From contig JAAVCG010000032.1 in the NCBI GenBank assembly GCA_014802435.1, positions 65,839 through 129,838 of the forward strand: a stretch of 64,000 nucleotides of DNA. Reading direction: 5' to 3'. Below, piece after piece: positions 2,984 to 27,674 of this stretch. Each line of letters opens with the position of its first letter. Position 1 is the stretch's first letter. A program made the position numbers and the translations under genes. Under the pieces are notes generated by a model that did no database searches, was not told the origin of the DNA, and worked only from the letters and a program-made list of their open reading frames with translations. This DNA comes from Bacteroides sp. (GTDB taxonomy: Bacteria > Bacteroidota > Bacteroidia > Bacteroidales > Muribaculaceae).

Positions 2984-2999
2984 CACCCCCGCACATACA

Positions 3000-3033
3000 C
3001 CGGGCGTCGCGATCATCTCGTCGCGACGTCCGG
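3000..3033. terminator. GC-rich hairpin between convergent obg and the glycosyltransferase gene (no clear U-tract)
   Basis: ccgggcgtcgcga / tcgcgacgtccgg arms pair at 12 of 13 positions with an 8-nt loop. Confidence 0.45.
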
Positions 3034-3061
3034 TAATTCATCTATTCTCAGAGATTCGTAT

Positions 3062-3838
3062 TCAGACCCAGGGCCATGAAGCTATGTATTCCATTAGATC
3101 AGGTGCTGACATGGCACAAACTCTGCAATATTCACGTTTCGTTTTCAATACTAACGGAGAATAAGAGTTTGAGCTATTGATACCCCTGGGATGGTTCAGA
3201 TGAAATATTTTACCCATGATTCTCTTGGGCTTATGACCTAAAATATCAAGTCGGTGTTCTCTTTCAAAATCTTCCGGACCCCATCCCGGGAAATTCTCGT
3301 TCTCCCAACCGACTGTTTTATATCGGTTAACATTTACTAAGTATGCGCCTCCAACAGATATAAAACCAAACATTAGCTGCTGATTTCCGTCTATGGCTTC
3401 AAATATCTTAGGGTTGAGTCTCTGACGGAAAATATTTGACATATAAGCATCGCAGCCAATGAATCGGCCATCATAAGGGAATACCATGATTTCATCCGAA
3501 AACAAGAGTAGTTTATTTGCTCGGATGAGTTGATTTTTCGGGACTATTACGTCAGAGTCTATTACGGCCGCATTTTGAGTTTTTACTCTGCGAAATTCTT
3601 CATTTATGTAATGGGTCCGATGGAAAATCGGGTTTTCATCCTGAATAAAAATATAGTCAACTTCCGGGAACTCAGTTCGCATTATTTCGCGTAATTTTGG
3701 CTTTGAGTCCGCTTCAAGGAGGACAGTCGGCGCACCTTGTGTTAGCTCTCTGTAATAACTCAGAGTCGCCTTGACGTTTTCAAATCGAGTTTCCGAGTCA
3801 ATTCTGACAGTAAATATTATAGTTAAGTCTTTAATCAT
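3062..3838 (-). CDS. GT-A fold glycosyltransferase (galactosyltransferase-like)
   Basis: Likely start is MIKDLTIIFTVR at 3838, overlapping the upstream stop by 8 nt. It has a DxD-like IDSDVIV and FPGWGPEDFE, which resembles the WGxED motif of GT2/GT7-type enzymes. The gene is AT-rich. Confidence 0.7.
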   Translation of the reverse strand: MIKDLTIIFTVRIDSETRFENVKATLSYYRELTQGAPTVLLEADSKPKLREIMRTEFPEVDYIFIQDENPIFHRTHYINEEFRRVKTQNAAVIDSDVIVPKNQLIRANKLLLFSDEIMVFPYDGRFIGCDAYMSNIFRQRLNPKIFEAIDGNQQLMFGFISVGGAYLVNVNRYKTVGWENENFPGWGPEDFEREHRLDILGHKPKRIMGKIFHLNHPRGINSSNSYSPLVLKTKREYCRVCAMSAPDLMEYIASWPWV

Positions 3839-4733
3839 CGTAGAGTAATTTATCAAGGCCAAGGGCGAATCCAACTAATTGTGAAGACGAACAATTTGAA
3901 TTTGAGATCAGACCTATAAAGTCATGACACAATTTTTTGCAAAATGTAAATACTGACAAGAAGAATTCTTTTGAATCATAGCAAATCGAGAGTCTCCCGG
4001 CATCATTGAGTAAATTTAGTAGTGTCTCTGTGTTGACTTCGTTAGGATCAATACTTACTTCTCTGCTGCATTGCAAGTCAAGCATGATGATGTCTTGCAG
4101 ATAAGAATGAGTACGGTCAAATGGCGCCATTTTAACCATTTCTTTAATTTGTTTTGCCTTGTGAGGATAGACTCCATGTTTTTCTGCTAACGCAGCAAAC
4201 GCTCCAATGCTATGTAGAATGCCGGCTGTCAATTCCGTAGGAGAGTAGACGGAGGGAATGGAAGTTGTCAATATTTTCTCACAATCGCATAGCCGAAAAA
4301 TAATTTGTTCCTCCAAAACATAACGTTCTATTGTATCTTCATCTGTGTTCAGTAGAGACATCATAACAACCCCAAACGGATAAAATCGGTCTCTTAAATC
4401 AAGCTGGATTGGTGCATTGACAAAGTATGTGCTGTTTTTCTTTATGATATTATAAGCCATGTGCAACAGTCCTTCAGGCTTCTCCAGTATTTCTTCCTTA
4501 ATTAATCTGGCAAGAAGTAAGAGAAACGCCATATCACCTCCCAATAGTCCCATAGGAAGATCCCGATACTCTCTGGTTAATCTATGCAACTGTTTTACGG
4601 CATAGTCAGGAGGATTAACTGCTGAATCATTATTAGCATATTCTTTTAGTCTGAAATATATTAGTCCAAGATCAATCATAGGGGACTGATATTTTGTTAA
4701 AAGCTTTAGGATAATAGAGAGAAGATGTTTCAT
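3831..4733 (-). CDS. Helical-repeat protein of unknown function with LanC-like G-x-x-x-G-x-x-G repeat signatures
   Basis: 300-aa ORF whose ATG overlaps the OMP stop (TAATG). Repeat motifs are GLLGGDMAFLLLLA, TAGILHSIGAFAALA and LVGFALGL. No CHG or WCxG zinc-ligand motifs are present. Confidence 0.6.
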   Translation of the reverse strand: MKHLLSIILKLLTKYQSPMIDLGLIYFRLKEYANNDSAVNPPDYAVKQLHRLTREYRDLPMGLLGGDMAFLLLLARLIKEEILEKPEGLLHMAYNIIKKNSTYFVNAPIQLDLRDRFYPFGVVMMSLLNTDEDTIERYVLEEQIIFRLCDCEKILTTSIPSVYSPTELTAGILHSIGAFAALAEKHGVYPHKAKQIKEMVKMAPFDRTHSYLQDIIMLDLQCSREVSIDPNEVNTETLLNLLNDAGRLSICYDSKEFFLSVFTFCKKLCHDFIGLISNSNCSSSQLVGFALGLDKLLYDD

Positions 4734-7681
4734 TATTGAGGTAAATGTTTTGGTTGCTTATTGATTCGGTATTGAATATGGAAAAGAACATACGAGGGAA
4801 TAACGTTACTTATGGTTTCAGTGCGCGCTTCCGATGTAATCCTATACGAGATTCCTGTCAGCTGTTGAAGGATATCATATGCGTCAATTGTGAATGTCAA
4901 TACTCCATTCATAATAGACTTACTGAGGCGTGCATTCCAAATCCAGTCTTTTCTATTGATGAGAGTATTCAGGTATCCATCACGATATTCCAATGACAGA
5001 TCTGTTGACAAGCTCCAGTTATTCGGTAGATTTAAAAAAGAGGATATCGTGCTTTTATATTGACGAGTGTGGTAGTTTATTATTCCATTAATTTTATCTC
5101 CATTTTTGTCTGAGGCTATATCCGCTTTGGTTATCCATTCGAATCTCATGTTTTTATTGGCCCAAGAGAGACCAAATTCTCCATCCACTTTATGGCGAGT
5201 ATCTTCCCTCATGAAGGTTCTATTCTCGAGTAAGACACTGGCATACCCGAGATTACGAGACGCCCCTATCCCGGCAGATAATTGAAAAGGCCCGTTGCGT
5301 CTGAAGGTGGTGGAAAAACCGTAATGGATGTTTCCGGACCATGAGCCGGTTTTATTTACATATTGAATGACCTGTAAACCTGTCGTTTCGTTGAATTCAG
5401 AAGCCTGGATTATTGTACGGAAATCGTGGTCGTAGGATATATATATGTCATGCCTTGTTACCTGTTGATAGTTATATTCCGTTTGAAATTGAGCAAATGC
5501 TGCCATGGTGGGTTTAAGATTGGTGTTGCCTATTTCTATAAGCAAAGGATTGATTATCGGGCGTGAAATCATCTGAAGATAGTTTGGAGAAGATGTATCC
5601 AATCCTGTCCTAAATGTTATTTCTGTAGAAGACCGGCTTACACCCGGATTTGCCCTTGATAGCGTAATTTCGGCATCAGCAGATGGTAAGATAAACTTTT
5701 TATGAATATTCTCTTGTTGACCATATTCAAAAATTGAGAAGTTGTTCTCATTAAATTTTATCACTGCATTGACTTTGAATTGATACTTCAAGTTAGGGCT
5801 ATTGCGAATTGAAGTAGTATGTTTGATAACGGATGCTTGCAGGGTGTGATTATTATTCAGAATTAGATTTTGTCTGCTTCTATCCAAGTTTAATATGCCA
5901 ATATTAAAGACCTCATATGTGTCCTTATCTTTTAAGCTATGAAAGGTATATTTTAGTGGAATTGACAAGTTCTTATTCGGGTAATATTTAGTGAGAGTTG
6001 CAAATGTTGTCCAATTCGCTGAGTATGTTGGCTTTTGATTTATTTTATCGTTAGCTTGACTGGAAGTGTCTTCCATTGGATATCTTATAAATGAATCGTT
6101 TAGGCCATGAAAAAATCTCCACGTATTTGATGTATTTAATCTTAATGTTAGTGATAGCGGATTCGTCCCTCCATGTAATTTTATCATACTCTCGATAAAA
6201 ATCCATAGGAAAGCACGGTGTCCTTGATTAGAAATGTTTTGTTTTCGTAGATTAAGTGTGTTAGAATTTTCAGACTCGGATTCTAAAAGTGAGTCTTCAA
6301 TATATTTTGCTGAAATATCTTTGCGTTCGGAATTAAATATTCCGGACAGCAAGTTTGTTTTTGTATTGATATTGGAAAAATCAAATGAAATGAAACCCTC
6401 GAGATTGGCTTTAGAGTCAAATCTATAATTGAATTTATTCCAAGTCTTTATTGAAAGAGCCTTATGAGTTGAAGATTTGAATGAATATTCAAAATTATTT
6501 GAACTGCCTAATAAATTCTGCCGCATGGTTTTGTCATGATATAACTCTTTTGAATTTTCAGCTTCTAAACTTCCCTTTAATTCCCATACTGATTCGGATG
6601 TGGATAGATTATAGTTTAAGCCTCCTCCGTAGCGTCGGGTAACACCAAGGCCCATTTTCTCAATTGACCATGCACCGTCATTCTTTCCCGGAGGAGTCGC
6701 ATCGCTTAGGTTATTGGTATTCATGTAAGCTGAACAACCGAGATTCTTGGTAAATCCCATCCCAAATAACTTGCCGAGAAATCTATTATGGGTGCCATAT
6801 CCGGCATTTACGTTGGCAAACCATCCGTAAGAATACTCCCTTTTTAACTTTACATCCATTACCAGTTGAGAGTCGTTAATCACATCTTTCCCCAATAGAG
6901 AAGCCATTTTCCCCTCTTTTGAGTAACACTGAATCTCTTTTACTGTATAAGCGCCAAGATTCTCCAATGCAAGGGTATTTTTCCCGTTAAAAAGATCTCT
7001 ACCATTTATCAGTAGAGTTCCAACCGGCTTATTATTTACAGTAATCTGACCTCCGGGGTTTAATTTTACCCCCGGCATTTGCCGGAGCAAAGCGTCTAAC
7101 ATTGACCCGTCTGCCGTGATAAATGCATCCGCATTATATACTAATGTGTCACCCTTATGATAAAACTTTACAACTGATGCTGTTACTTCTATCTCCTTTA
7201 ATTGCTTTGATTTACGCTTATTCAATACTGCGTCGGGCAATCTGTAATCCTTACCTGCTGTCTTTAAATCTTTGTGTGAAACTTTTATCCATACCGGTTC
7301 ATAGTCTTCTGCTAAAACATAACTCCCGGCAGCTGGATTTCCATTGTTCTTGTGATAGCCTTCAACCTTAAACATATAATATGAAGGTTTTATTTTTATT
7401 TCACCTCCAAAGTATTTCATTCCCTTCTCGATTATTGGAGTGAACAACTCTCCATCAAATATCAGAGAATCTTCCTCTCCGGGGATCGCGATTGAATCAC
7501 ATAAGTAAACCGTAATCAATCCCTGAGAAAAAGATTCCTTTGTTACGCCGTTAAGCACACGCCCTTTGACAAAAATAATCTTCCCATCATTCCAGTCTTG
7601 ACAAATCGAAATGATTGAAATGAATAAAAAGCATATTGTAATGCAATAGCGTTTAATAATATGATTGAGTAGTAAATCCAT
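4733..7681 (-). CDS. Outer-membrane plug + beta-barrel protein (TonB-dependent-receptor-like, with an N-terminal carboxypeptidase-regulatory-like domain)
   Basis: It has a signal-like N-terminus (the ATG at 7681 is preferred over the TTG at 7687). Plug-like region: DGSMLDALLRQMPGVKLNPGGQITVNNKP..LLINGRDLF. A long alternating beta-strand region ends in an aromatic-rich C-terminus. Confidence 0.8.
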   Translation of the reverse strand: MDLLLNHIIKRYCITICFLFISIISICQDWNDGKIIFVKGRVLNGVTKESFSQGLITVYLCDSIAIPGEEDSLIFDGELFTPIIEKGMKYFGGEIKIKPSYYMFKVEGYHKNNGNPAAGSYVLAEDYEPVWIKVSHKDLKTAGKDYRLPDAVLNKRKSKQLKEIEVTASVVKFYHKGDTLVYNADAFITADGSMLDALLRQMPGVKLNPGGQITVNNKPVGTLLINGRDLFNGKNTLALENLGAYTVKEIQCYSKEGKMASLLGKDVINDSQLVMDVKLKREYSYGWFANVNAGYGTHNRFLGKLFGMGFTKNLGCSAYMNTNNLSDATPPGKNDGAWSIEKMGLGVTRRYGGGLNYNLSTSESVWELKGSLEAENSKELYHDKTMRQNLLGSSNNFEYSFKSSTHKALSIKTWNKFNYRFDSKANLEGFISFDFSNINTKTNLLSGIFNSERKDISAKYIEDSLLESESENSNTLNLRKQNISNQGHRAFLWIFIESMIKLHGGTNPLSLTLRLNTSNTWRFFHGLNDSFIRYPMEDTSSQANDKINQKPTYSANWTTFATLTKYYPNKNLSIPLKYTFHSLKDKDTYEVFNIGILNLDRSRQNLILNNNHTLQASVIKHTTSIRNSPNLKYQFKVNAVIKFNENNFSIFEYGQQENIHKKFILPSADAEITLSRANPGVSRSSTEITFRTGLDTSSPNYLQMISRPIINPLLIEIGNTNLKPTMAAFAQFQTEYNYQQVTRHDIYISYDHDFRTIIQASEFNETTGLQVIQYVNKTGSWSGNIHYGFSTTFRRNGPFQLSAGIGASRNLGYASVLLENRTFMREDTRHKVDGEFGLSWANKNMRFEWITKADIASDKNGDKINGIINYHTRQYKSTISSFLNLPNNWSLSTDLSLEYRDGYLNTLINRKDWIWNARLSKSIMNGVLTFTIDAYDILQQLTGISYRITSEARTETISNVIPSYVLFHIQYRINKQPKHLPQ

Positions 7682-7779
7682 ATGCAAAATTAATAAAAAA
7701 AATTGGGCAATTCGCGGTTTTAATAGTGAATTAACTTTTTTTTAACTGTAAATATTTGCATATTTTTAATTTTGATTCG

Positions 7780-7787
7780 TACATTTG
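7780..7787 (+). promoter_or_regulatory. Candidate Bacteroidetes -7 promoter box (TACATTTG) for the precursor operon
   Basis: Matches TAnnTTTG and lies 26 nt upstream of the ATG at 7814, inside the 126-bp divergent intergenic region. Confidence 0.4.
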
Positions 7788-7813
7788 CGCAGAATTTATA
7801 ATAAACTGTAATT

Positions 7814-8293
7814 ATGAAACATGCAAAAATTTCCCTTTCGACTCTAAGCGATGACGAGATGCGTTCAGATGTGGCTATGCCTCGAGGTAATACTTCCGAT
7901 TACCTAAAAAAGCATCTGAATATTACGGAGGCTGGTTCTTCTGACGAGCGGTGCTTTGCGTCTTTGGTGTGCCCTCCTGGAGATGGAACAAATGGTACTG
8001 TCCAATGCAGTGGCGCTGCAGGGTCGTGTGAGGGATATACTTCCAGTGGCATTTATGTGGGAGTAAAATGTGGTGATTATTCTGAAGAGTGCTCTAAAGC
8101 TGTTTTTCAAGGGTGGGATTGCTCTGAAGTATATGATGAACTGGAAGACAAGGAGAAAGCTTGTTGCAATAAGGAGGTGTCGGATTCATGTGAATACATG
8201 TATCATACGCTCTCCGGTCAGTCGGGATACGTACGAGGCTGGTGTAAATATAGATTCGCTGCACCAGGGCTATATTGCTCTGAAACTCGTTAA
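7814..8293 (+). CDS. Cysteine-rich (12 Cys) precursor-like protein with a hydrophilic leader and no Sec signal
   Basis: The N-terminus MKHAKISLSTLSDDEMRSDVAMPRG resembles Bacteroidetes LSxxEMxxIxGG-type leaders. All 12 Cys lie between residues 47 and 155. It is the first gene of an operon with an oxidoreductase fusion. Confidence 0.7.
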   Translation: MKHAKISLSTLSDDEMRSDVAMPRGNTSDYLKKHLNITEAGSSDERCFASLVCPPGDGTNGTVQCSGAAGSCEGYTSSGIYVGVKCGDYSEECSKAVFQGWDCSEVYDELEDKEKACCNKEVSDSCEYMYHTLSGQSGYVRGWCKYRFAAPGLYCSETR

Positions 8294-8360
8294 CTATACT
8301 AATTGATCTTTTGGCAGGACTTTATTAATTCAAATAGTATTGTTAAGCCTATTCGATTAA

Positions 8361-9932
8361 TTGAATTGCTATGAATGCGATATGTACTCATTTATTACCC
8401 TTATTCTTTCTAATATAGGTGTTAAGTTTTCACATCAGACTCTTAAACACTTATTTGAAACTCGTTTCTTTGATAATAGTTTGTATTCAATTGCTCAAAT
8501 TCTTTCAAAGTACAATGTCGCCTCAGTCGGAGTACGATTTAGTAAAGAATCAGTTGTTGAAGATGAGTATTGTCCATTCGTAGCTCAAATCGGAGGTTTG
8601 TGGACTTTGGTAACACGCGTGTCTAATGATTCGGTGTTCTACTATGATGCCATACATCCGGCAAAAGAGAATAAAATCTCCAAAGATATCTTTATCGGTC
8701 AGAGTAATGGAAAGGCATTATTAGTCTTGCCTGATAGGTATTCAGGTGAGCTGAATTATGTACATAATCATCTTTGTATTATTAAAGACAGAATAAAGAA
8801 AATTGTCATTTTCAGCATGGGAATTATTTTGGTTTCTTTGGGACTGTTAAAGAATCCGTTGACTGTTAAATGGTCGTATTATGCTCTTCTGGCTCTTAAT
8901 ATTCTTGGATTAGTAATTTGCTTTTTATTATTACAAAAGCAATTGAATATTTCTAATAGATTTACGGATAAATTATGTTCGTTTATTAACGATAATCATT
9001 GTGATTCGGTTACTGATTCTGCCGCTGCCTCGGTTTTGGGGATGGTTAAGTTGAGTGAGATTGGCTTCGGATTTTTTACTGTCAACTTGGTAGTCCTATT
9101 ATTTGTTCCTCAAGTTATTCCTTGGCTCGCAGTATTTTCTGTATGTGTGTTGCCTTTCTCGTTTTGGAGTATCTGGTATCAACGATATCGTGTAAAAAGT
9201 TGGTGTACTTTATGTCTGATTGTGTTAGCCGTAATGTGGATTCAATCCTGTTGTTATTTTGTCGCAGGATTTCTTTCTCAATTAGCAAGCGAATCATTAA
9301 TTGATGGTATCAATTGTTTTGTTGGGTATGTATTTGTTGTGCTGATGATTAATTATTGTATGCAAGTAATTGAGAAATCAAAAAATGCTGATTATTGGAA
9401 GCAGAGGTATGAAAGTATTAAGTCTGTTCCGACTGTCATAGACGCATTTATGGGGCTGGAGAATGGTTATGATATATCGCCGAATGTTTGTTCTGCAATG
9501 ATTTTCGGAGACCCGGATGCTGAACGTACGATTACTGTATTCAGTAACCCATATTGTGGGCCATGTGGGCAATTGCACAATATAATTAAGGATTTCCCTG
9601 GTGGATGTGTAAAGATTCAATATGTTATGACTTATTTTAGTGAAGATAAATCAGCCGTGAATAAGGCTATTATTGCAGCATATAGTCAACTCGGATGGGA
9701 AAAGACTTGGGAGATAATGACTGAATGGTATAAGTCAGACAAGAAGGATGGTGTAAAATTTTTTGAACGATTTGGTCTCAATATGGATAGGTCTGATATT
9801 GAAAAAGAGTTTAAGAAGCAGAAAGAATGGCCTATGGGGAAGAATTTTAGAGGAACCCCTACTATCCTTGTTAACGGAAGAGAACTTCAAGGTCCGTATA
9901 CGATTGAAGATTATTTTTATTTACCGAGATGA
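8361..9932 (+). CDS. Tri-domain fusion: C39-peptidase-like domain (probably non-catalytic) + VKOR membrane oxidoreductase + thioredoxin/DsbA-like domain
   Basis: It has VKOR loop cysteines CSFINDNHC (residues 206 and 214). The CXXC motif WCTLC (282-285) sits at the start of a transmembrane helix. A thioredoxin YCGPC motif (399-402) and a cis-Pro loop RGTPT are present. The N-terminal ~135 aa are C39-like (LYSIAQILSKYN.., YYDAIHP). The start is ambiguous between TTG 8361 and ATG 8382. Confidence 0.85.
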   Translation: MNCYECDMYSFITLILSNIGVKFSHQTLKHLFETRFFDNSLYSIAQILSKYNVASVGVRFSKESVVEDEYCPFVAQIGGLWTLVTRVSNDSVFYYDAIHPAKENKISKDIFIGQSNGKALLVLPDRYSGELNYVHNHLCIIKDRIKKIVIFSMGIILVSLGLLKNPLTVKWSYYALLALNILGLVICFLLLQKQLNISNRFTDKLCSFINDNHCDSVTDSAAASVLGMVKLSEIGFGFFTVNLVVLLFVPQVIPWLAVFSVCVLPFSFWSIWYQRYRVKSWCTLCLIVLAVMWIQSCCYFVAGFLSQLASESLIDGINCFVGYVFVVLMINYCMQVIEKSKNADYWKQRYESIKSVPTVIDAFMGLENGYDISPNVCSAMIFGDPDAERTITVFSNPYCGPCGQLHNIIKDFPGGCVKIQYVMTYFSEDKSAVNKAIIAAYSQLGWEKTWEIMTEWYKSDKKDGVKFFERFGLNMDRSDIEKEFKKQKEWPMGKNFRGTPTILVNGRELQGPYTIEDYFYLPR

Positions 9933-10600
9933 GTCTCCGAATACGACAAAGAAACTTAATAAACAAACTAGTCTTTCACGCCCTGGATTCACCTTATGCT
10001 TTGGGACTTTTTCATGGGCAAATGGGGATTTTAATTGTTGTTGCTCATTGTAGTAAGCAGTGGGGCTTATCTGAATTAGAGTGTGTTGCAGATTTTTTGT
10101 TTGAGCATATTCGGTTGAACACTAGAAGGGTTGATAAGATTGGATTATCTACGGGCTTGTCGGGTATATGTTGGGGTGTAGAGTACTTGGTTCAGCATGG
10201 TATAATGCCAGGACCGGCAGATGATATTTGTGAGGAAGTGGATGGTAAAATTATGCAGACAGACGTGAGACGCATTGACGATTTTAGTTTAGCAACGGGG
10301 TTAAATGGACTATGGCTTTATGTTAAGGCTCGTATTCAGGGAAATTTGGTTGCGGGATTGCCTTTGCCGTTTGATTTTGTGTATCTAAATGATTGGCAGA
10401 ATGTTTTGACGCAGAATAAGGAACATTTTCCGGTAGATGCTGCGCAGTGGCTCATGGATGCCCGAAAAGGGAGAATTACACCATATGAGCTTAGGTTGCC
10501 CCCGTTTATTCGTCCCATGAGGTGTTGCCCTCAGACCGATTTATCATTGTCGGAAGGTCTTGCCGGATATATTGCATTTCATTATCTGCACGAAATATGA
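9929..10600 (+). CDS. LanC-like helical-repeat protein (about half the length of LanC, no zinc ligands)
   Basis: ATGA overlap with the upstream gene. Four repeats spaced ~48-85 aa apart: GLFHGQMGI, GLSTGLSGICWG, SLATGLNGLW and SLSEGLAGYI. Confidence 0.65.
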   Translation: MSLRIRQRNLINKLVFHALDSPYALGLFHGQMGILIVVAHCSKQWGLSELECVADFLFEHIRLNTRRVDKIGLSTGLSGICWGVEYLVQHGIMPGPADDICEEVDGKIMQTDVRRIDDFSLATGLNGLWLYVKARIQGNLVAGLPLPFDFVYLNDWQNVLTQNKEHFPVDAAQWLMDARKGRITPYELRLPPFIRPMRCCPQTDLSLSEGLAGYIAFHYLHEI

Positions 10601-11823
10601 AACACGTTATTTTTGTTGATGAATATAATAGTTCAATTCAAAACGGTATAGGAACTTTTCGAGATCAGTTGCTTCCTCGTTTAGGTACTTCTTCCGGAAT
10701 TAAGACAACACTGATTTCTCTTAACTCAATGGAATCAGATGTGAAGCGAAGGAAGACTTTGTTTGGAAATGAGCTTAGAATACCTATGGTTAATTCCGGC
10801 AATTGGCGCGGTATTGGAGGGCTAATCTGTCCTGTTCGGAGGACTTATATTCCAGATAGAGATTGGAATGTCTTTATACTGAATCATTCACCTTGTTCAA
10901 ATTTCATTAAGTCGCTTCGGGAGTCATTTCCAAAATCAAAAATTATTTTTGTTATTCATGATCAAGGATGGTGTGCTCCACTGTTGGGAAGCGTCAGTCT
11001 TTTGAAAGATATTCTCTTGAAAAAAATTATTCCTAAAGGGTTTTCGCGTGAGGTTATTAGTCACGTTGTTGAATCCTATAAGGAGGAAGTAGAGATTTAT
11101 TCGAATGTTGATTACATAGTATGCATATCTCGCTCAACTTTTAAGATAGTAGCAGAGGTATATGGCATTAATGAGGCAAAATTACGCCTGATACCTAATG
11201 GATTGGACGCCGATGGATTGTCATTGGAAAATAAGTTGGCTATCCGAAAGAGTCTTGGAATAATGTCACATGAGAAATTAATCATATTCTCCGGGCGTCC
11301 GGCCCGTTATAAAGGGATTGAGCCCATGTTAATAGCTTTTGAGCGTTTACAGAATACAATTCCTGATATAAGGCTCGTTATTTGTGGGAGTTTGGACGGA
11401 TTTGGTAAGTTTAGCCGATTACTTGAGCCCATAGCGTCTCGTGTAACATTTACGGGATTGTTGTCTCAAGAAAAATTGGCTGAATGGTATAAAGCATCTG
11501 ATGTCGGGCTTTTGCCTTCTTATAGCGAACAATTTGGTTATTCTGCCTTTGAAATGATAAAGTATGGGCTACCCATAGTCGTATCAGATGGTAATGGTCT
11601 TCGCGATTTGTTTACTGATGGGGTTAATGCTTTGGTTGCTCAAATTGGTAATGTGATTGATTCAAGTGGTTTTGTCAAGTCTTTAACTCAATCTTTGGAG
11701 ACAGTCTTGACTATGTCTCCTCTACAATTGAGAGGAATCCAAGATGAAGCGAGGGAGCTCTTGACCTATTATTCCACAGAAAATATGGTGCAAAAATATC
11801 TACAAGTTATAAGAGAGAAATAG
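10597..11823 (+). CDS. Glycosyltransferase family 4 (GT-B, Glycos_transf_1-type)
   Basis: ATG at 10597 overlaps the upstream stop (ATGA). The C-terminal half reads FSGRPARYKGIEP...LLPSYSEQFGYSAFEMIKYGLPIVVSDGNG, with the E-x7-E region typical of GT4. Confidence 0.85.
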   Translation: MKHVIFVDEYNSSIQNGIGTFRDQLLPRLGTSSGIKTTLISLNSMESDVKRRKTLFGNELRIPMVNSGNWRGIGGLICPVRRTYIPDRDWNVFILNHSPCSNFIKSLRESFPKSKIIFVIHDQGWCAPLLGSVSLLKDILLKKIIPKGFSREVISHVVESYKEEVEIYSNVDYIVCISRSTFKIVAEVYGINEAKLRLIPNGLDADGLSLENKLAIRKSLGIMSHEKLIIFSGRPARYKGIEPMLIAFERLQNTIPDIRLVICGSLDGFGKFSRLLEPIASRVTFTGLLSQEKLAEWYKASDVGLLPSYSEQFGYSAFEMIKYGLPIVVSDGNGLRDLFTDGVNALVAQIGNVIDSSGFVKSLTQSLETVLTMSPLQLRGIQDEARELLTYYSTENMVQKYLQVIREK

Positions 11824-11826
11824 TAA

Positions 11827-11859
11827 AGAAAGAGTCCGACGCTGAGCCGGACTCTTTCT
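11827..11859. terminator. Hairpin between convergent GT4 and GH31 genes
   Basis: agaaagagtccg / cggactctttct form a perfect 12-bp stem with a 9-nt loop. Confidence 0.6.
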
Positions 11860-11877: not shown

Positions 11878-14800
11878 TTATTTGGTTTGGAGGAGCTTGT
11901 TGACCAGGATGGGGCCTTGCATCGTCGGGGCGGAGGTGCGGGCCTTGACGCGGAAGCGGATGGTCAGCAGCGCGCCGGAGCCGTTGACGTCAGGTTTGTC
12001 GCCAATGGTGACAAACGTCGGGTAGAGGACCTTGTCGCCTGAGGTGTGGAGGCGGTCATAGGTCAGGTTCTCCATGTTGGCGAGCAGTTCTGAGGGCTCG
12101 ATGCCAAGGTATTCAATCACTGCCGGGTCATAAGGAATGGCCAGCGAGAAAGCCGCGAGGGCTTGCAGGTCTTGGCCGCTGAGGGTCAGTACCATCTCTT
12201 CACCGGGAGCATAGCTCTTCTTGGAGGATTCAAGGCTCAAGGTGCCTTCAATCGGCTTGATGTTCCATGGGGATTCGATTCCGCCATCGAGCTTGACGGC
12301 TACGTTGGCAATATCAAAGGCGTCGATGAGGCCGTTGCGGTTCACATCGCCCATGCTGACGTAGTCAAAGTCGCCGTCGCCCATGCGCAGACCCGTATAG
12401 TTGGTGTAAGAGGTCAGGTCATTGGAGTCGATTTTGCCGTCTTTGTTGATGTCGCCGGGAATGAATGAGGGTGAGCCGGGAACCTTGAAGACGAAGAATT
12501 CGCGTCCGGAGCCGAAGTTGCCGACGGCTTTGTCAACGTGAAGGCGGATATAGCGCGCCATCGGTTGCCCCTCAAGGGTGATGACCTTGGTGGAGTTATC
12601 GCGAACCCACTGGAAGGGGATTGCGGGGCTCCAGTCTGAGGCATTTTCTGAGAGTTCGATGGTGCCTTCAAGGAGCGTTCCGTTGCCGGCGTTGGTGCGG
12701 GGAAGATATTCCAGACGGTCAAGGGTATTAAATGAGCCGAGGTCCATGACGATGTCCAGCGGCAGGGCGTCTTCGCCATACTTGGTGTGCCAGAGTTCGC
12801 GGTCGTCATGGTCAAAGAGGCGGCTGATGCGTGCGCCTCCCTGGTCAGGGGCTGAGGATGTGGCCGTGATGCCGCTGATGGCAAATTCAAGGGGATTATC
12901 GGCCGTGGTGACGTTGATGGTGGTCCAATCGGAGGCGCCGGCGGGGTTGAGGGCGCGGAGTTTGAACTCATAGGCCGTCTTGGGCTGGAGGTCCTCAATG
13001 AGGAGGGTATTGAAGCCTTCGGCGGTGCCTAAGTTGGTGTATAGCATGCCGTTGAAGAGCATTTCCAGTGATGAGGCATCATTCATCGGGGCCCAGCGCA
13101 GATTGACGGCATATGGCTGAATATCAGCCTCATCGAGTTCCACTTGAGGAGCTTCCGGAGCCGTCAGCGCGAGGCTCGCGGGCATGGCGGCTTGCGGATT
13201 CAGCTCAAAGCCCTTGACTACGCAGCCAACGGCAGTTTCCGTCACTGTCACGGTCGGGAGCTTCACCAGGAGCTGAGGAATGGACGAGGCGGCCTCGTCG
13301 ATGCCCCATTGACCCAGGCGGTTAGCTGAATCGTCAATCATCCATGCGGCATCGTTGGCCTCAAATTCGCTGCGAGTGGAAGCATGGGTGAGCTTCAGCT
13401 TCTTGCCGCCAAGGAGGCCGTAAACTTCCTTGGGTTCAGAGGTGATATTGATGCGCAGTTCGGTTGATTTCTTGTCGGTCATCCCCTGGAATGAACCGAT
13501 AGTGGGGTCAATGGTAACGGTCAGGACGCCCTTATCGGAGAGGTCTGAGGTGATTTTGGTCGTTGCATATTGGCCGAGGCGATAGGCTTCAGTGGTGCCG
13601 TCATCGTCATATTCGGTGATTTCAGACTTGCCCGCGGGCCAGAGCTCATAGATGCGCTCCCAGGATTTGATCTGACTCGGGTTATTGTTCGGATTAACCA
13701 TCGGAATGATGGCGCCGGCCTTGACAAACACCGGGAGCTTCCATAGCGGAGCGTCGAAATTATTCAGGATAATGTCGGCCTCCGGATTGCCATAAGCAAG
13801 GCCGCTGAAATAGTCAAACCATTGTCCGGCGGGAAGATAGATGTTATGGCGCACGTCGTTGCCGGCCTCATCGGAGCGAGTGGGCTGATAAATCGGCGCA
13901 ACGAGCATCGACGGGCCGTAGAGGAACTGATAGCGTGAAGCCGTCCCGTGAGTGTAATCATTAGGATAGTCCAGGAACATGGCGCGAATCATCGGCTGTC
14001 CGTCGATGGCCTCGCGCGCTGCCGTATAGGCATAAGGCATCAGCTCTGACTTGAGCTTGAGGTAGGCGCGGTTAATCCTTTCGGCGTCTTCGCCAAGCTG
14101 ATGGGGATACTTGGGGTTGGCGCCCCAGCCGTCCATATTGAGCTGCATCGGGGTGAACGTTTTCCATTGATAGTCACGGATATTGACGGGGATGTTGCGG
14201 CCGCCGAAAATGCCGTCCATGTCTGAGCTGATGTTCGGCTGACCGGAAAGGCCCGAGCCGATATACGTCGGGATATGGAAGCGGATGTACTCCCATTCGC
14301 CGCCCGTCTGGTCGCCGGTCCAGATTCCTGCATAGCGCTGAGTTCCGGCCCAGCCGTCGAGCGAGATGATGAACGGACGCGCGTCGTTGCCATAGTAAGG
14401 CATGATTTCGCCTACGTCGGCAACTCCGTTAAGGCCAAAGGAATAGCCTGCGCCAACCCAGGCCACGTCGGTCTTCAGAACCCTGACGCCCGCATCGCGT
14501 ACTTCCTTGACGATGTCGCGCTGAAGCAGCGGCTCAACGCCCTCCCTGGGATGGAGCGCGCTCTGAGTCCAGAGGCCGATTTCAACGCCATGTTGCCGCG
14601 CATAATCGCCATATTGACGCAGATTTTCTATATTGCCGTCAAGGCTCGACGTCTGACCATAGCCTGCGCCATAACCATCATTGGGCAATACCCAGCCCAG
14701 GGGCATATCCTTGGCGTTATAACGGTCAATGACGGCGCGTGCCGAGAATTGATAATTGCCCGGAAGCTCGCCGTTGAGGCTCTCCTTGATGCCGCCGTTA

Positions 14801-15678
14801 TCGGTCTGACTTTCTTTATATTTCTTGCCATCCTCAAAGAGAATGCCGTTTTCATCTTCCTTCCAGTAGTCGCGGTTATAGGCGTTCAGATGCCCCTCAT
14901 AGAAACCAAACTTGGGAAGCAGCACGGGATTGCCCGTAAGCTGATAAAAATCATTCAGCAGGCCGACGGGTGTCTCGTCAACCATGATAAATACGTCGAG
15001 ATAAGGCGCGTTATGGCTCAGTGATACCGTGCCCGGCTCTGAGGCACCGAAATCATAGGCTCCGGGCGCAAACGTGTGCCACATCAGGCCGTAACCGTCA
15101 GTCGACCAGTAGAAAGGAGTCGGTGAGGCCACTCCGCCGTCGGTCCATGAATTGGTGTTGACAATGTCAATCAGCTGCCCTTTATGAGAAAAACGGCCGT
15201 TTTGAACTCCGCCGCCATAGAAATATTCGCCCGGATTCTCGCGAAATTGGAGAGTGGTCTTCTTTCCTTCAATTTTGATGGGCGAAACGGTCTGAGCCAC
15301 TTGCTTTCCCGTCCGGAGGTCAGTAACGGTAAACGTCTCGCCCTCAGCCGGAAAATCGATGCTGATTCGTGAAGTCTCAACTCTTACCGAGCCGTCGGCA
15401 TTGTTCTTGACAATGACTGCTCCTGACTCCTTGCGGGGATTATCAACAAGGATTTGAGCCTCCGGACTCGCCTCCGGATTGCGCGGAAGTCCTCCCTGAG
15501 GGTCTGAAAACAGACGGAATACGTTAGGCCCGTAAAAGTCAATAAGCAAGGGAAGTTTTTCCGCCCCTAAATTAACCTCGACGGAATGAGGATTCAAGCG
15601 CAAGGCCGTCGCGGCCGATAGCCCCAACGGAGCCGCAGCGACGACTGCCGCCAGAATAGAAAATTTTAACTTAATCAT
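11878..15678 (-). CDS. Secreted multidomain glycoside hydrolase family 31 protein with FN3, F5/8 type C (discoidin), dockerin-like and cohesin-like C-terminal modules
   Basis: Signal peptide MIKLKFSILAAVVAAAPLGLSA. GH31-type WTGDQTG and KTDVAW catalytic-region motifs. An FN3-like segment. A discoidin-like segment (..RYIRLHV..). Dockerin repeats GDINKDGKIDSND and GDVNRNGLIDAFD. Confidence 0.8.
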   Translation of the reverse strand: MIKLKFSILAAVVAAAPLGLSAATALRLNPHSVEVNLGAEKLPLLIDFYGPNVFRLFSDPQGGLPRNPEASPEAQILVDNPRKESGAVIVKNNADGSVRVETSRISIDFPAEGETFTVTDLRTGKQVAQTVSPIKIEGKKTTLQFRENPGEYFYGGGVQNGRFSHKGQLIDIVNTNSWTDGGVASPTPFYWSTDGYGLMWHTFAPGAYDFGASEPGTVSLSHNAPYLDVFIMVDETPVGLLNDFYQLTGNPVLLPKFGFYEGHLNAYNRDYWKEDENGILFEDGKKYKESQTDNGGIKESLNGELPGNYQFSARAVIDRYNAKDMPLGWVLPNDGYGAGYGQTSSLDGNIENLRQYGDYARQHGVEIGLWTQSALHPREGVEPLLQRDIVKEVRDAGVRVLKTDVAWVGAGYSFGLNGVADVGEIMPYYGNDARPFIISLDGWAGTQRYAGIWTGDQTGGEWEYIRFHIPTYIGSGLSGQPNISSDMDGIFGGRNIPVNIRDYQWKTFTPMQLNMDGWGANPKYPHQLGEDAERINRAYLKLKSELMPYAYTAAREAIDGQPMIRAMFLDYPNDYTHGTASRYQFLYGPSMLVAPIYQPTRSDEAGNDVRHNIYLPAGQWFDYFSGLAYGNPEADIILNNFDAPLWKLPVFVKAGAIIPMVNPNNNPSQIKSWERIYELWPAGKSEITEYDDDGTTEAYRLGQYATTKITSDLSDKGVLTVTIDPTIGSFQGMTDKKSTELRINITSEPKEVYGLLGGKKLKLTHASTRSEFEANDAAWMIDDSANRLGQWGIDEAASSIPQLLVKLPTVTVTETAVGCVVKGFELNPQAAMPASLALTAPEAPQVELDEADIQPYAVNLRWAPMNDASSLEMLFNGMLYTNLGTAEGFNTLLIEDLQPKTAYEFKLRALNPAGASDWTTINVTTADNPLEFAISGITATSSAPDQGGARISRLFDHDDRELWHTKYGEDALPLDIVMDLGSFNTLDRLEYLPRTNAGNGTLLEGTIELSENASDWSPAIPFQWVRDNSTKVITLEGQPMARYIRLHVDKAVGNFGSGREFFVFKVPGSPSFIPGDINKDGKIDSNDLTSYTNYTGLRMGDGDFDYVSMGDVNRNGLIDAFDIANVAVKLDGGIESPWNIKPIEGTLSLESSKKSYAPGEEMVLTLSGQDLQALAAFSLAIPYDPAVIEYLGIEPSELLANMENLTYDRLHTSGDKVLYPTFVTIGDKPDVNGSGALLTIRFRVKARTSAPTMQGPILVNKLLQTK

Positions 15679-15758: not shown

Positions 15759-16256
15759 TTATTCTGATTCGTTGGAGAAACCGGGATAGCGGGTGATATT
15801 GATGCCGGTTGAGAGTATGTCATCCTCCTTATTGGAGGCAATATCCAGATAGCTGTGATTATAATAGGGATAATAAACGTCGTCAGGATCGGGATCGGGT
15901 TCGTAATCGATTTTGTCAAGAACGAGTTTAACCCTGTTTGGACTAATCAGTTCAGCTGACCATTGGCCTCTCTCGCAGTAGTAATAAGATGGCGATTCAG
16001 CTTCCTTGTTTGCAATGTAGATATTATTGGCATTTTTGCATTGAAGAATTATTTCGCTCGCCTCGTAGTTTGCGTCAATATAATACATCTTCACGCAGTG
16101 TGGCGGGTCAGGAGAATAATATTCAATTTTGATGTTCTCCGGATTGACGGTGCTTTTGGTGGAGAACCGCAAGTCAGCCTCTTTTTCTATGCAGGAGGAG
16201 AAGGTAAACACCGAGAGAAGCATCACAAATATAATAAGATTTCTCATAACTGACAT
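15759..16256 (-). CDS. Small hypothetical lipoprotein (AT-rich)
   Basis: MSVMRNLIIFVMLLSVFTFSSC lipobox if the start is at 16256. The ORF is open up to 16376, and a CAAAGATA -7 box lies at 16388-16395, so an N-terminally extended membrane-anchored form is possible. Confidence 0.55.
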   Translation of the reverse strand: MSVMRNLIIFVMLLSVFTFSSCIEKEADLRFSTKSTVNPENIKIEYYSPDPPHCVKMYYIDANYEASEIILQCKNANNIYIANKEAESPSYYYCERGQWSAELISPNRVKLVLDKIDYEPDPDPDDVYYPYYNHSYLDIASNKEDDILSTGINITRYPGFSNESE

Positions 16257-16450
16257 TTTATAGTCAGGTTCGCCGGTCTTTTGGTAGTAGTCGTTGTTCA
16301 CCTGCATGTCATGTTCCGGGCAGCCATTGTAGGTATTCAAGTCATCGTAATTCATAGTCATGTAATGATTTGGCAATTAATTTCCGGCAAAGATACATAT
16401 TTATTCCGAGTTATCCAACTCCCCATTAACCATTTATTAGAAAAGATGGA

Positions 16451-18399: not shown

Positions 18400-18954
18400 T
18401 CAGGCATTTATAGTAAATTCTCCCATGTAGGTTTCGTTAATTCGCTGCTCTATTTTATTTAAAGTGATTTTTCCGCTGTTCAGCTGTTTTCGGTTTACCA
18501 TTAAATAGAACTTGTTACTTATGTCCGCGCAATGAAGAAAAACGTTATCACCAAATAATCGGAGCATAAGCTTTTTGTAGAATCCGAATCGGCGATTACC
18601 ATTGGGCACCGGTTTGTCAACAATGTCTTTTGCCAAATCCGGAGCCGCAATGAACCCGAATGAAGAGAATTCGTTACGTCGAAAATAGTCCAGCATTATC
18701 TCAATGCATGAGCGGATTATTCTTCTTGGCTCATAGTCATTGGTCAGGAGCGAATATCTGTTTTTACTTTTTTCAACTCCTTTCCAGTAGAATTTAAGTC
18801 CGTAAAATTCATGTTCATAACCCTCAACTTCTACGATATATCTTTTTTTACTCCGAGAAGATTTAAATGCCCAGATATCAGTAATGCGGGGAGACCCGTG
18901 GGTCTTCTTCCGCATTACAAAATGAGGGATATAAAATTCAGTCGTGGAGCTCAC
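18400..18954 (-). CDS. Hypothetical protein (no family recognised)
   Basis: 184-aa AT-rich ORF. The GTG start at 18954 overlaps the upstream small ORF stop; an alternative ATG is at 18915. Confidence 0.55.
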   Translation of the reverse strand: MSSTTEFYIPHFVMRKKTHGSPRITDIWAFKSSRSKKRYIVEVEGYEHEFYGLKFYWKGVEKSKNRYSLLTNDYEPRRIIRSCIEIMLDYFRRNEFSSFGFIAAPDLAKDIVDKPVPNGNRRFGFYKKLMLRLFGDNVFLHCADISNKFYLMVNRKQLNSGKITLNKIEQRINETYMGEFTINA

Positions 18955-19082
18955 GGCAGAATGTATTCATAAGTGGAGGTTCGAGCGGAAGCTTTTTCTT
19001 CGGTCGATATAGCACGCAGACGAATCGTTGGGGTCTGTCCGTCCTCAATACTGAGATTCAAAGGTTTCTGTAACTGTGCCAT
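18951..19082 (-). CDS. Small hypothetical ORF (43 aa)
   Basis: ATG at 19082 lies 33 nt downstream of the -7 box in repeat copy B. Its stop overlaps the start of the next ORF (GTGA). No homology is recognised. Confidence 0.3.
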   Translation of the reverse strand: MAQLQKPLNLSIEDGQTPTIRLRAISTEEKASARTSTYEYILP

Positions 19083-19113
19083 AGGATAAACTGATTGAAT
19101 TAATAATCTATTT

Positions 19114-19145
19114 GCAAAGTTACAAATTTTCCGCGACATACGCAA
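19114..19145 (-). repeat. Direct-repeat copy B (32 nt) containing a -7 promoter box
   Basis: gcaaagttacaaattttccGcgacatacgcaa, with CAAAGTTA at 19115-19122. Similarity to copy A continues more weakly for ~20 nt further. Confidence 0.8.
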
Positions 19146-19178
19146 GCCCCGTCCGGAAATTTTTATACCGTTTGCCAT

Positions 19179-19721
19179 TCATTTCATTTGGACAAGATTT
19201 TGAATTATGTCATCGTATATTTTGATGACATGGCGAATATCAAATTCTTGTTCTGCTTTTTTTCGGCTATATTTGCCGAATTCGTTTCTTTGCTCTGGAC
19301 TAAGATTTATGAACTGAGTTATGGATTGGATTAATGACTCTGCATTGGCAGGCTGACATAGAAAACCATTCTTTCCAGGTTCAACCATTTCTCTGCATCC
19401 GGGGATATCTGAGGTTATTATTGGCTTACTCATTGCGAGTGCTTCCATTAGGGTTCTGGACATTCCTTCGTGGTAAGAGGGTAAAACAATGCAGTCAGCA
19501 TTTCTAATATATGGTCTAACATCCAAGGACTCCCCTAAATATTTGAAACTGCTGTTTACTTCATCATATTTTATTTGAGGCAGGGAAACATGGTTTGGGT
19601 AACTCTCGTCAATTGGGCCAAGCCAATGGAAGTCCGCGAGATTTTTTAGTTTTTCAGATGCTTTGATGTACTCAGAGTATCCCTTATCGTAAAGGACTCT
19701 ACCAATAACAAGGAAAACCAT
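19179..19721 (-). CDS. GT4 glycosyltransferase, C-terminal (Glycos_transf_1) half only
   Basis: MVFLVIGRVLYDKGY... VLPSYHEGMSRTLMEALAMSKPIITSDIPGCREMVEPGKNGF. It starts 1 nt after the stop of the N-terminal-half ORF, in a different frame. Confidence 0.8.
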   Translation of the reverse strand: MVFLVIGRVLYDKGYSEYIKASEKLKNLADFHWLGPIDESYPNHVSLPQIKYDEVNSSFKYLGESLDVRPYIRNADCIVLPSYHEGMSRTLMEALAMSKPIITSDIPGCREMVEPGKNGFLCQPANAESLIQSITQFINLSPEQRNEFGKYSRKKAEQEFDIRHVIKIYDDIIQNLVQMK

Positions 19722-19722
19722 A

Positions 19723-20256: not shown

Positions 20257-20285
20257 TTGATGACCGGTTATATTTATCGCGCTAT

Positions 20286-26506: not shown

Positions 26507-26510
26507 GTGC

Positions 26511-27668: not shown

Positions 27669-27674
27669 TTGTGT

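Follow-up and report, generated by a model that had tools for sequence, protein, structure and literature searches.

Introduction

The sublancin locus of Bacillus subtilis (sunA, sunT, bdbA, sunS, bdbB) encodes a peptide with a double-glycine (GG) leader, a 37-aa core and two disulfides, together with a peptidase-containing ATP-binding cassette (ABC) transporter (PCAT; here SunT). Its logic of precursor, thiol-disulfide oxidoreductase and glycosyltransferase (GT) reappears in the DNA studied here, a 64,000-nucleotide stretch of a Bacteroides sp. genome (GenBank assembly GCA_014802435.1, contig JAAVCG010000032.1, positions 65,839 to 129,838 of the forward strand) that we call the window. A seven-gene island at 3062-11823 of the window encodes a leader-bearing protein with 12 cysteines, a fusion of C39-like, vitamin K epoxide reductase (VKOR) and thioredoxin (Trx) domains, two LanC-like proteins each paired with a GT, and an outer-membrane barrel. 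An earlier note on this DNA had drawn the parallel with sublancin. The component logic is indeed shared, and the Trx domain is structurally BdbD/DsbA-like, but the island does not belong among the glycocins: it has no GG site and no PCAT, its GTs are of another family than SunS, its core of about 114 aa with 12 Cys is long, and its host is Gram-negative.

The nearest relatives of the island are bacteroidetocin-like loci and the loci described by the NCBIfam models TIGR04149 and TIGR04157. Bacteroidetocins (proposed class IIf, from Bacteroides and Phocaeicola) resemble the putative island product in being Cys-containing secreted peptides of Bacteroidales with a bacteriocin-type leader; their mature form has 42 aa and 4 Cys, follows a 15-aa GG leader and is exported by a PCAT, from loci with no GT, LanC-like or barrel gene (PMC6671954). 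A multi-transmembrane (TM) protein and a thiol oxidoreductase, whose genes flank the peptide gene, are both required for full activity, Bacteroidales anaerobes have been reported to be without general Dsb machinery, and the passage of bacteroidetocins across the outer membrane was left as an open question (PMC6671954). Unlike these loci, the island combines the long 12-Cys core with two LanC-like/GT pairs and a barrel, and has neither GG site nor PCAT. The window counterpart of the bacteroidetocin TM protein and oxidoreductase would be one fused protein, a functional equivalent that is likened to them by description.

The second group of relatives carries the NCBIfam names 'TIGR04149 family rSAM-modified RiPP' (radical S-adenosylmethionine-modified, ribosomally synthesised and post-translationally modified peptide) and 'TIGR04157 family glycosyltransferase'. 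The GT4 enzyme of the island aligns end to end with TIGR04157, the leader of the Cys-rich protein resembles the TIGR04149 type, and loci with TIGR04149-type peptides contain members of these fusion, LanC-like and GT families too. In contrast to that system, the island GT4 stays below the model cutoff of 400 bits and the precursor has no TIGR04149 match. Pfam and NCBIfam found no radical-SAM domain among the seven island proteins, the island holds no pseudo-rSAM gene, and the neighbours examined in the canonical loci described below are Trx-fold proteins rather than rSAM enzymes. The verdict of the earlier note, that the gene set could be assigned to no described class, was thus too strong, since the GT4 is kin to TIGR04157, the fusion, LanC-like and GT-A genes recur in many Bacteroidales beside TIGR04149-type peptides, PCAT and HlyD, and the gene order parallels that of bacteroidetocin loci.

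On present evidence we lean towards reading the island as a member of a subclass of Bacteroidota-wide loci that mature leader-bearing, Cys-rich secreted proteins, a subclass in which the exporter set would have been replaced by a barrel paired with the protein.

Results

Two classes of a Bacteroidota-wide locus family

Relatives of the fusion were found at 506 loci in species genomes of Bacteroidota (one genome per species), and also on plasmids of Parabacteroides and Cytophagia. Neighbourhoods were analysed for 80 non-redundant loci by iterative hidden Markov model (HMM) searches, and fell into two classes that have in common the fusion, a leader-bearing Cys-rich open reading frame (ORF) and pairs of LanC-like and GT genes. 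The canonical class runs from the fusion through a 57-100-aa peptide, a secreted Trx-fold protein, a PCAT, HlyD and a LanC-like protein to a TIGR04157-like GT4 or a GT-A enzyme; its peptides have a textbook GG leader, usually 6 Cys and a TIGR04149 match, and its order parallels that of bacteroidetocin loci (TM protein, peptide, oxidoreductase, PCAT; PMC6671954). The class of the window holds the closest homologues of the window fusion. Here a barrel gene lies beside a gene for a leader-bearing Cys-rich protein of 90-200 aa, followed by the fusion, a LanC-like protein and a GT4, with a second LanC-like/GT-A pair in some loci; PCAT, HlyD and the secreted Trx protein are absent.

PCAT and barrel genes exclude each other. 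PCAT genes occur in 18 of the 80 loci and barrel genes in 18, and no locus has both (Fisher p 0.005). Leaders differ along the same line, with 17/17 leaders of GG type in PCAT loci and, in barrel loci, 4 GG and 10 non-GG leaders (10/14; p 2e-5). Neither the island nor the entire 64-kb window contains a PCAT or HlyD homologue, so that the absence of an ABC exporter and of HlyD reported for the island in the earlier note extends over the whole window. The divergent arrangement of the genes is retained in relatives with protein identities of only 31-65% (locus L003), which bears out the proposal that the seven genes form a functional unit, and leader-bearing Cys-rich ORFs stand at the same position in diverged loci.

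Some neighbours were rejected as components. Genes of 370-500 aa in distant loci, considered as TIGR04148-type radical-SAM enzymes, proved by NCBIfam to encode Trx-fold (ResA/TlpA-like) proteins with signal peptides, beside PCAT and HlyD. Proteins of 550-590 aa next to window-type loci, considered as ABC exporters, were Asp-Al_Ex permeases, a tetratricopeptide-repeat (TPR) protein, an M60 peptidase and an AMP-binding enzyme, all of them products of variable flanking genes.

In databases the locus family shows only through its parts, each under a name of its own. For a plasmid of P. distasonis, for instance, NCBI lists a 'vitamin K epoxide reductase family protein', a 'lanthionine synthetase LanC family protein', a 'galactosyltransferase-related protein' and a 'peptidase domain-containing ABC transporter'. 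The literature was searched for a C39-VKOR fusion, for VKOR together with Bacteroides bacteriocins and for PF14905 with no relevant result, and no functional description of the locus family was found, the nearest paper being PMC10352776.

A 12-Cys protein with a bacteriocin-type leader

The 159-aa protein begins with a leader of bacteriocin type ('LSTLSDDEMR...PRG'), with no GG after the leader helix. Against an HMM built from 40 GG leaders it scored 8.4 bits, a value reached by 0/200 shuffled sequences (-0.8 +/- 2.0), which upholds the earlier call of a leader on this protein. The core of about 114 aa contains all 12 Cys (residues 47, 53, 65, 72, 86, 93, 103, 117, 118, 126, 144 and 155) and is acidic (pI 4.66, against 4.85 for the full protein). 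TIGR04149 did not match this or five other window-type proteins at E<=1, while it matched four canonical-class peptides with E values of 2e-3 to 7e-6.

When the precursor was used in an exhaustive HMMER search, the sole returns were a copy with 98% identity and a spurious match, a repetitive protein of 796 aa (P0109). The recognisable part of the core is a C-terminal 4-Cys module (residues 117-155, nt 8162-8278) of the pattern C-x-G/N-K...C-x-W/Y...G-x-C...L-Y-C, which some 22 small ORFs in related loci also carry, at times doubled. Compared with the copy in L001, the gene has 5 synonymous and 3 non-synonymous changes and keeps 12/12 Cys. It has no NCBI protein accession and was called only in ENA and Logan gene sets; the barrel (MBD5293919) and the fusion (MBD5293920) have successive accessions, and the precursor therefore appears to be unannotated in the GenBank records of this metagenome-assembled genome (MAG).

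Among related precursors, those of L007, L008, L011, L015, L016, L018, L019, L030, L036, L049, L051, L055 and L068 carry long low-complexity linkers rich in Gly, Ser, Thr and Asp (for example GSGSGS... or SGTGGSGTG...) between leader and Cys-rich modules; the window precursor has only short S/G-rich stretches. By analogy with the glycosylation of Ser-rich repeats, the long linkers are possible O-glycosylation targets of the GT4.

A dead C39-like domain fused to VKOR and a DsbA-like Trx domain

The fusion had been described as a C39-like/VKOR/Trx protein, and this description holds. Pfam gave 57 bits for VKOR, 32 bits for Thioredoxin_4 and a sub-threshold 21 bits for Peptidase_C39. The family profile matched structures in the PDB (PCAT1 residues 31-182, E 2e-9; DsbA, 1e-6; the Synechococcus VKOR, 4NV2), and an AlphaFold2 model (mean predicted local distance difference test score, pLDDT, 87) shows an alpha/beta N-terminal domain, six long helices and a Trx-fold C-terminal domain. 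Foldseek returned PCAT1, BdbD and DsbA, with PCAT1 among the top matches. The ORF that the earlier note placed at 8361-9932 exists, but the start is most likely the ATG at 8382 rather than the TTG at 8361, since close homologues and the NCBI annotation begin there; residue numbers used here count from the TTG.

In an alignment of 26 members, the loop cysteines C206 and C214 and the C282/C285 pair were invariant, and C399 and C402 of the Trx domain were kept in at least 90%. No Cys or His of the C39-like domain was conserved across the same 26 members, and the start at 8382 leaves out the 'EC' of the TTG ORF; the domain is thus catalytically dead and plausibly binds the leader. A short form of about 335 aa with the C39-like domain, the extra TM helix and VKOR but no Trx domain (e.g. 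P0070) is common in Muribaculaceae.

The fusion resembles two proteins of known structure. With the VKOR-Trx protein of Synechococcus (PDB 4NV2/4NV5) it shares the four-helix core, the loop Cys pair, the CxxC in a TM helix, a fifth TM helix and the Trx fold, and differs from it in the added N-terminal TM helix and C39-like domain and in reversed loop charges. With PCAT1 (PDB 4RY2) it shares a homologous N-terminal C39 fold, linker and first TM helix, whereas it lacks the ABC transporter domains and does not conserve the catalytic Cys and His of C39.

A predicted inward orientation of the VKOR core

Hydropathy and the structural model agree that one TM helix precedes VKOR TM1, giving six TM helices, which puts the C39-like domain and the Trx domain on one and the same membrane side. 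The homology to PCAT1 runs through the linker into the first TM helix of that transporter, and because this helix starts from a cytoplasmic C39 domain, the shared side of the fusion is suggested to be the cytoplasm. Charge distribution points the same way. Among the 26 members, Lys plus Arg averaged 15.0 (minimum 11) on the side of the C39 flank, Cys loops and Trx domain and 1.15 (maximum 3) on the opposite side, and the difference remained when the long loop was left out (10.2 vs 1.15). Short-loop charges, +3/+1/+2 in the Synechococcus VKOR, were 0.1/2.8/0.5 in the fusion family; since the topology of the former is known, this reversed pattern predicts the opposite orientation. On these grounds we consider it somewhat more probable than the reverse that the side with the Trx domain, the C39-like domain and the Cys loops faces the cytoplasm.

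Bacterial VKORs have been described as outward-facing, and eukaryotic VKORs can break the positive-inside rule. Inverted VKOR paralogues (VKORi) are present in Crenarchaea such as Aeropyrum pernix and Pyrobaculum (cited in bioRxiv 10.64898/2026.03.26.714578). Their catalytic cysteines face the cytoplasm, as predicted for the window fusion; unlike it, VKORi proteins are archaeal, stand alone and are linked to general cytoplasmic disulfide formation in hyperthermophiles, with no leader-binding fusion and no peptide locus. The barrel-coupled, PCAT-less, large-core subclass and the predicted inverted VKOR are new.

The barrel varies together with the Cys-rich protein

The 982-aa protein, described earlier as a plug/beta-barrel outer-membrane protein, has a signal-like N-terminus and no Pfam match of its own, and its barrel assignment rests on homologues, 9/20 of which match OMP_b-brl_3 (best 6.5e-28) and 9/20 CarboxypepD_reg-type domains. 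A search of the PDB with the barrel profile gave no sequence match. The barrel part of the description thus holds through the homologues, but the plug was not recognised by Pfam at any threshold in the conserved N-terminal region. A conserved motif, 'L-x-E-V-T-V-T-A-S', resembles a TonB box.

Barrels evolve fast, with 30-36% identity to the window copy, compared with 42-47% for the fusion. Pairs of barrels with high identity (69, 65 and 57%, over a background of 30-48%) were the pairs whose adjacent small proteins were similar, with small-protein scores of 510, 323 and 266 against 26-86 elsewhere, and one genome has two cassettes whose barrels share only 35% identity. Since barrel similarity tracks small-protein similarity, the two genes form a two-gene cassette. 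This co-variation shows that the barrel and the Cys-rich protein are specifically paired; the direction of transport is not given by the pairing.

Two barrel genes each are present in L003, L018, L031 and L042, and L003 has two complete barrel plus Cys-rich cassettes with one set of fusion, LanC-like and GT4 genes. In L024 (5780-8791) and L087 (364-3359), proteins with the 4-Cys module are divergent to a non-barrel protein of about 870 aa with a weak MG2-domain match, and L087 has no fusion or GT gene near the 4-Cys-module protein, which suggests other partner types and free-standing cassettes.

Two LanC-like proteins, each with its glycosyltransferase

The earlier note had assigned two GTs of different folds (GT-B and GT-A), each with a helical partner, and Pfam, NCBIfam and profile searches agree. 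Its LanC-like call on the 223-aa protein was below the Pfam gathering threshold (19.5 vs 23.2 bits), but the family profile matched the cyclase domains of LanM, LanKC and NisC proteins in the PDB (LicM2, 9e-7; LanKC, 7e-5; NisC, 0.01). The 300-aa protein, described as a helical repeat protein, is helical and, more exactly, paralogous to the 223-aa protein (hhalign, 99.7% probability, E 6e-27). Neither is a full LanC cyclase: the 223-aa protein is half the size of LanC, its LanC homology spans only the first few helical repeats, and the invariant residues of its family are Gly, Leu, Asp and Tyr, with no invariant Cys or His that could bind zinc. The full (alpha/alpha) toroid of about 400 aa, the Cys-Cys-His zinc site and, as dehydratase partner, a LanB, LanM or LanKC gene are all absent from the island. 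A single-sequence model of the LanC-like protein reached a pLDDT of only 39. Zinc-less LanC-like genes have been noted before in Bacteroidales (PMC10352776).

The GT4 scored 92 bits against Glycos_transf_1 and 288.5 bits, over its full length, against TIGR04157. The GT-A family has the invariants D94xD96, W186-G187..D190 and H213..H216.R218 (a WGxED...HLxHxR signature), and its profile matched beta4GalT7 (4irp, E 1e-6), beta4GalT1 and chondroitin synthase in the PDB, with a weak match to Pfam Glyco_transf_7C; no SunS/ThuS-type enzyme was retrieved with the same profile. NCBI gives homologues, one of them on a plasmid, the name 'galactosyltransferase-related protein'.

Gene order ties the two kinds of protein together. 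LanC-like and GT genes co-occur in 30/80 loci, a LanC-like gene followed by a GT-A gene is found in at least 14, and LanC-like and GT4 are fused into single ORFs in L021, L076 (in reversed order) and L086. A signal peptide is missing from all of these proteins, which places their action in the cytoplasm. In L088 (12237-13466) and L089, which are two other metagenome samples, codon 22 of the GT4 gene is a premature stop (R22*). NCBI has a 364-aa version on record, and compared with L001 the gene has 15 non-synonymous and 6 synonymous changes; decay or variable expression of the GT4 is possible in this lineage.

An acquired island between obg and a GH31 gene

The island has a GC content of 0.378, compared with 0.50 in the remaining window and 0.55-0.60 in its immediate flanks, obg and a GH31 gene, and was acquired horizontally. 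All seven ORFs lie where the earlier note had placed them, overlapping or abutting in two operons (ATGA junctions at 9929 and 10597, TAATG at 4733, an 8-nt overlap at 3831-3838), and recalculated GC and folding likewise reproduced the AT-rich composition, both border hairpins and the 126-bp divergent region (Table 1). The left hairpin is probably the obg terminator and lies within host-type sequence. Boxes of the -7 type (TAnnTTTG) stand in the control region on both strands, with TAATTTTG at 7767 and TACATTTG at 7780 for the + strand and, for the - strand, TAATTTTG as reverse complement at 7685-7692. This region matched no Rfam family, no Rfam element was found, and it differs at 0-1 positions between samples. 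Traces of insertion were sought around the island, and no flanking direct repeats, integrase or tRNA were seen.

Table 1. Coordinates of the island features in the window
Feature	Position	Strand	Remarks
Left-border hairpin	2999-3035		GC-rich, 15-bp stem, -29.2 kcal/mol, directly 3' of obg stop codon
GT-A fold glycosyltransferase, 258 aa	3062-3838	-	beta4GalT-type profile matches
Second LanC-like helical protein, 300 aa	3831-4733	-	GT-A partner, paralogue of the 223-aa protein
Outer-membrane barrel protein, 982 aa	4733-7681	-	Sec signal peptide; divergent member of the OMP_b-brl_3/CarboxypepD_reg family
Shared divergent control region, 126-132 bp	7682-7813		Bacteroidetes-type -7 boxes on both strands
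Cys-rich precursor, 159 aa	7814-8293	+	Leader at about residues 1-25, then 12-Cys core
Fusion protein, 516 aa	8382-9932	+	Alternative TTG start at 8361
C39-like domain of the fusion	8382-8750	+	Catalytically dead
Extra TM helix, VKOR TM1-4 and TM5	8757-9422	+	Loop Cys 206/214, CxxC 282/285
DsbA/BdbD-like Trx domain	9498-9929	+	CGPC 399-402
LanC-like helical protein, 223 aa	9929-10600	+	GT4 partner, without zinc ligands
GT4 (GT-B fold) glycosyltransferase, 408 aa	10597-11823	+	Glycos_transf_1; sub-threshold TIGR04157 relative
Right-border hairpin	11827-11859		Between convergent GT4 and GH31 stop codons, -20.7 kcal/mol

The host is a Bacteroidales MAG of mouse-gut type, and the island is found at the identical place, between obg and GH31, in other metagenome samples with 98.6-99.75% identity. 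A look-up of this adjacency in relatives gave one obg-cluster relative, with a flank just 75% identical and a canonical OMP_b-brl_3 gene following obg. In this related Muribaculaceae MAG (L090, 11242-14127), the gene directly downstream of obg has a host-like GC of 0.54, and its protein belongs to the family of the window barrel (family-HMM E value 4.5e-116, with 25% identity to the window barrel).

The window has a second AT-rich stretch at 18400-29438, an ordinary polysaccharide biosynthesis locus unrelated to the island, most of whose genes have a GC of 0.33-0.39; it includes a Wzx-type flippase (27675-29438, Polysacc_synt), an EpsG-family gene (21262-22344) and an ATP-grasp enzyme (24291-25433). 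The genome thus holds several acquired low-GC regions. The flanking GH31 protein (11878-15678, - strand, 1266 aa) also has F5/8 type C, dockerin-like and cohesin-like Pfam matches, read from the precomputed annotation of the identical copy in L088. Between GH31 and an S1-domain ribosomal protein gene, a 205-aa ORF (15759-16376, - strand) lies in an AT-rich patch (GC 0.42); it has a hydrophobic segment and no Pfam match, and L088 and L089 each keep it as a gene call of 200 aa.

Discussion

The data suggest the following course of maturation. The 159-aa protein is made with a bacteriocin-type leader that has lost its GG cleavage site, and this leader would be bound by the catalytically dead C39-like domain, as homology to the leader-binding domain of PCATs suggests. 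The Trx domain would then oxidise the 12 cysteines and be re-oxidised by the VKOR core through menaquinone, a route to which the conserved catalytic Cys point. If the predicted cytoplasmic side is right, this leader-guided oxidation would precede export and take place in the compartment of the GTs. There the LanC-like/GT4 and LanC-like/GT-A pairs may glycosylate the protein, with the zinc-less LanC-like proteins as substrate-binding partners, consistent with synteny and gene fusions. Finally, the co-variation within the cassette suggests that the paired barrel would mediate either passage of the mature protein through the outer membrane or its recognition there. Such a product would most likely be an effector that acts outside the cell, resists proteases and serves interbacterial competition or signalling.

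An alternative is a product that, after maturation as proposed, serves as a secreted stable ligand, for nutrient or metal capture or as a signal, and is taken up or sensed by its cognate barrel on the model of hemophore and siderophore receptor pairs. The barrel family is related to TonB-dependent receptors (OMP_b-brl_3 plus CarboxypepD_reg), which are normally importers; barrel and small protein co-vary strictly 1:1, even across two different cassettes in one genome; an acidic, disulfide-rich core is atypical of membrane-active bacteriocins; and the island has no recognisable immunity gene. A ligand of this kind nevertheless seems unlikely to us, as the type of leader and all of the relatives speak for bacteriocin-type peptides (PMC6671954), no sigma/anti-sigma pair, two-component system or inner-membrane importer is linked, and the problem of export would persist. 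Another possibility concerns the barrel and the GTs, which might provide self-protection, as a resistant receptor allele or through a change of surface glycans, and have no part in maturation or export. The Bacteroides BSAP toxins, whose self-protection determinants are co-acquired with the toxin gene, are a precedent. Fast evolution of the barrel in step with the small protein, extra GT2 genes in several loci and loss of GT4 in some strains, which marks it as dispensable for viability, would agree with such a role. It is improbable nonetheless, given that LanC-like and GT genes are linked to peptide and fusion genes across distant genera, barrel-less loci included, that LanC-like::GT4 fusions and kinship with TIGR04157 argue for a peptide-directed role, and that the GTs are cytoplasmic in an island without flippase or lipid-carrier genes.

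Two further readings are disfavoured. For a true glycocin of the sublancin type, that is, an S-glycosylated helical hairpin with two disulfides exported and cleaved by a SunT-type PCAT, one could cite the common component logic and BdbD among the best structural matches of the Trx domain; the missing GG site and PCAT, the 114-aa core with its 12 Cys, the Gram-negative Bacteroidales host and a GT-A profile that matches beta4GalT-type and not SunS/ThuS enzymes make it very improbable. Glycocin cores are short, at about 35-45 aa, and have two nested disulfides and a sugar on Cys, Ser or Thr. That the island is an ordinary lipopolysaccharide or capsule glycosylation operon beside unrelated genes, with a non-coding 159-aa ORF, verges on the negligible. 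That impression could arise because the AT-rich island has two GTs, because another part of the window, at 18.4-29.4 kb, is a true polysaccharide locus, and because the small ORF is left unannotated in GenBank, but the island contains no flippase, polymerase, chain-length or sugar-nucleotide gene, its seven genes overlap or abut in two operons, Cys-rich leader ORFs are co-positioned in diverged loci, and the 159-aa ORF is intact between samples, with 12/12 Cys and 5 synonymous vs 3 non-synonymous changes.

Several observations weigh against our own reading of the island as a barrel-coupled maturation locus. With no inner-membrane exporter in the 64-kb window, the export route is unaccounted for. 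The cytoplasm-facing topology is a prediction from sequence only, and canonical loci also encode secreted, periplasmic Trx proteins, which would fit disulfide chemistry in the periplasm. Pfam Plug was not detected at E<=10 in six barrel-family members; plug and TonB box are putative. Apart from the short 4-Cys module, the precursor core has no detectable homologues and is a sequence orphan, and its acidity is unlike most class II bacteriocins. Glycosylation of the 159-aa protein is a proposal from synteny and gene fusions, and the GT4 has a stop in some strains and near-neutral substitutions. More tentatively, and as something we hold possible rather than probable, the barrel-coupled reading can be extended to the chemistry itself: an inverted, menaquinone-linked VKOR-DsbA unit mounted on a dead C39 domain would act as a leader-guided 'disulfide synthase' on bacteriocin-type precursors at the cytoplasmic face before export, beside LanC-like/GT complexes. 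In the window subclass, a dedicated and co-evolving barrel akin to TonB-dependent receptors would then handle the resulting disulfide-rich glycoprotein in place of a PCAT/HlyD exporter.

Gut Bacteroidales shape their communities via secreted antagonistic proteins, and few of their toxin families have been characterised. The very widespread locus family described here joins leaders of bacteriocin type with a membrane enzyme dedicated to disulfide formation and with GT/LanC-like pairs, and one barrel per multi-disulfide protein offers a concrete candidate for how such a product crosses, or is recognised at, the outer membrane. A leader-binding domain joined to an oxidase could also serve the production of disulfide-rich peptides. 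Disulfide formation at the cytoplasmic face, as predicted here, is otherwise known only from Crenarchaea and engineered E. coli; if the prediction is true, the fusion would give Bacteria their first inward-facing VKOR and ribosomal peptides a new post-translational logic.

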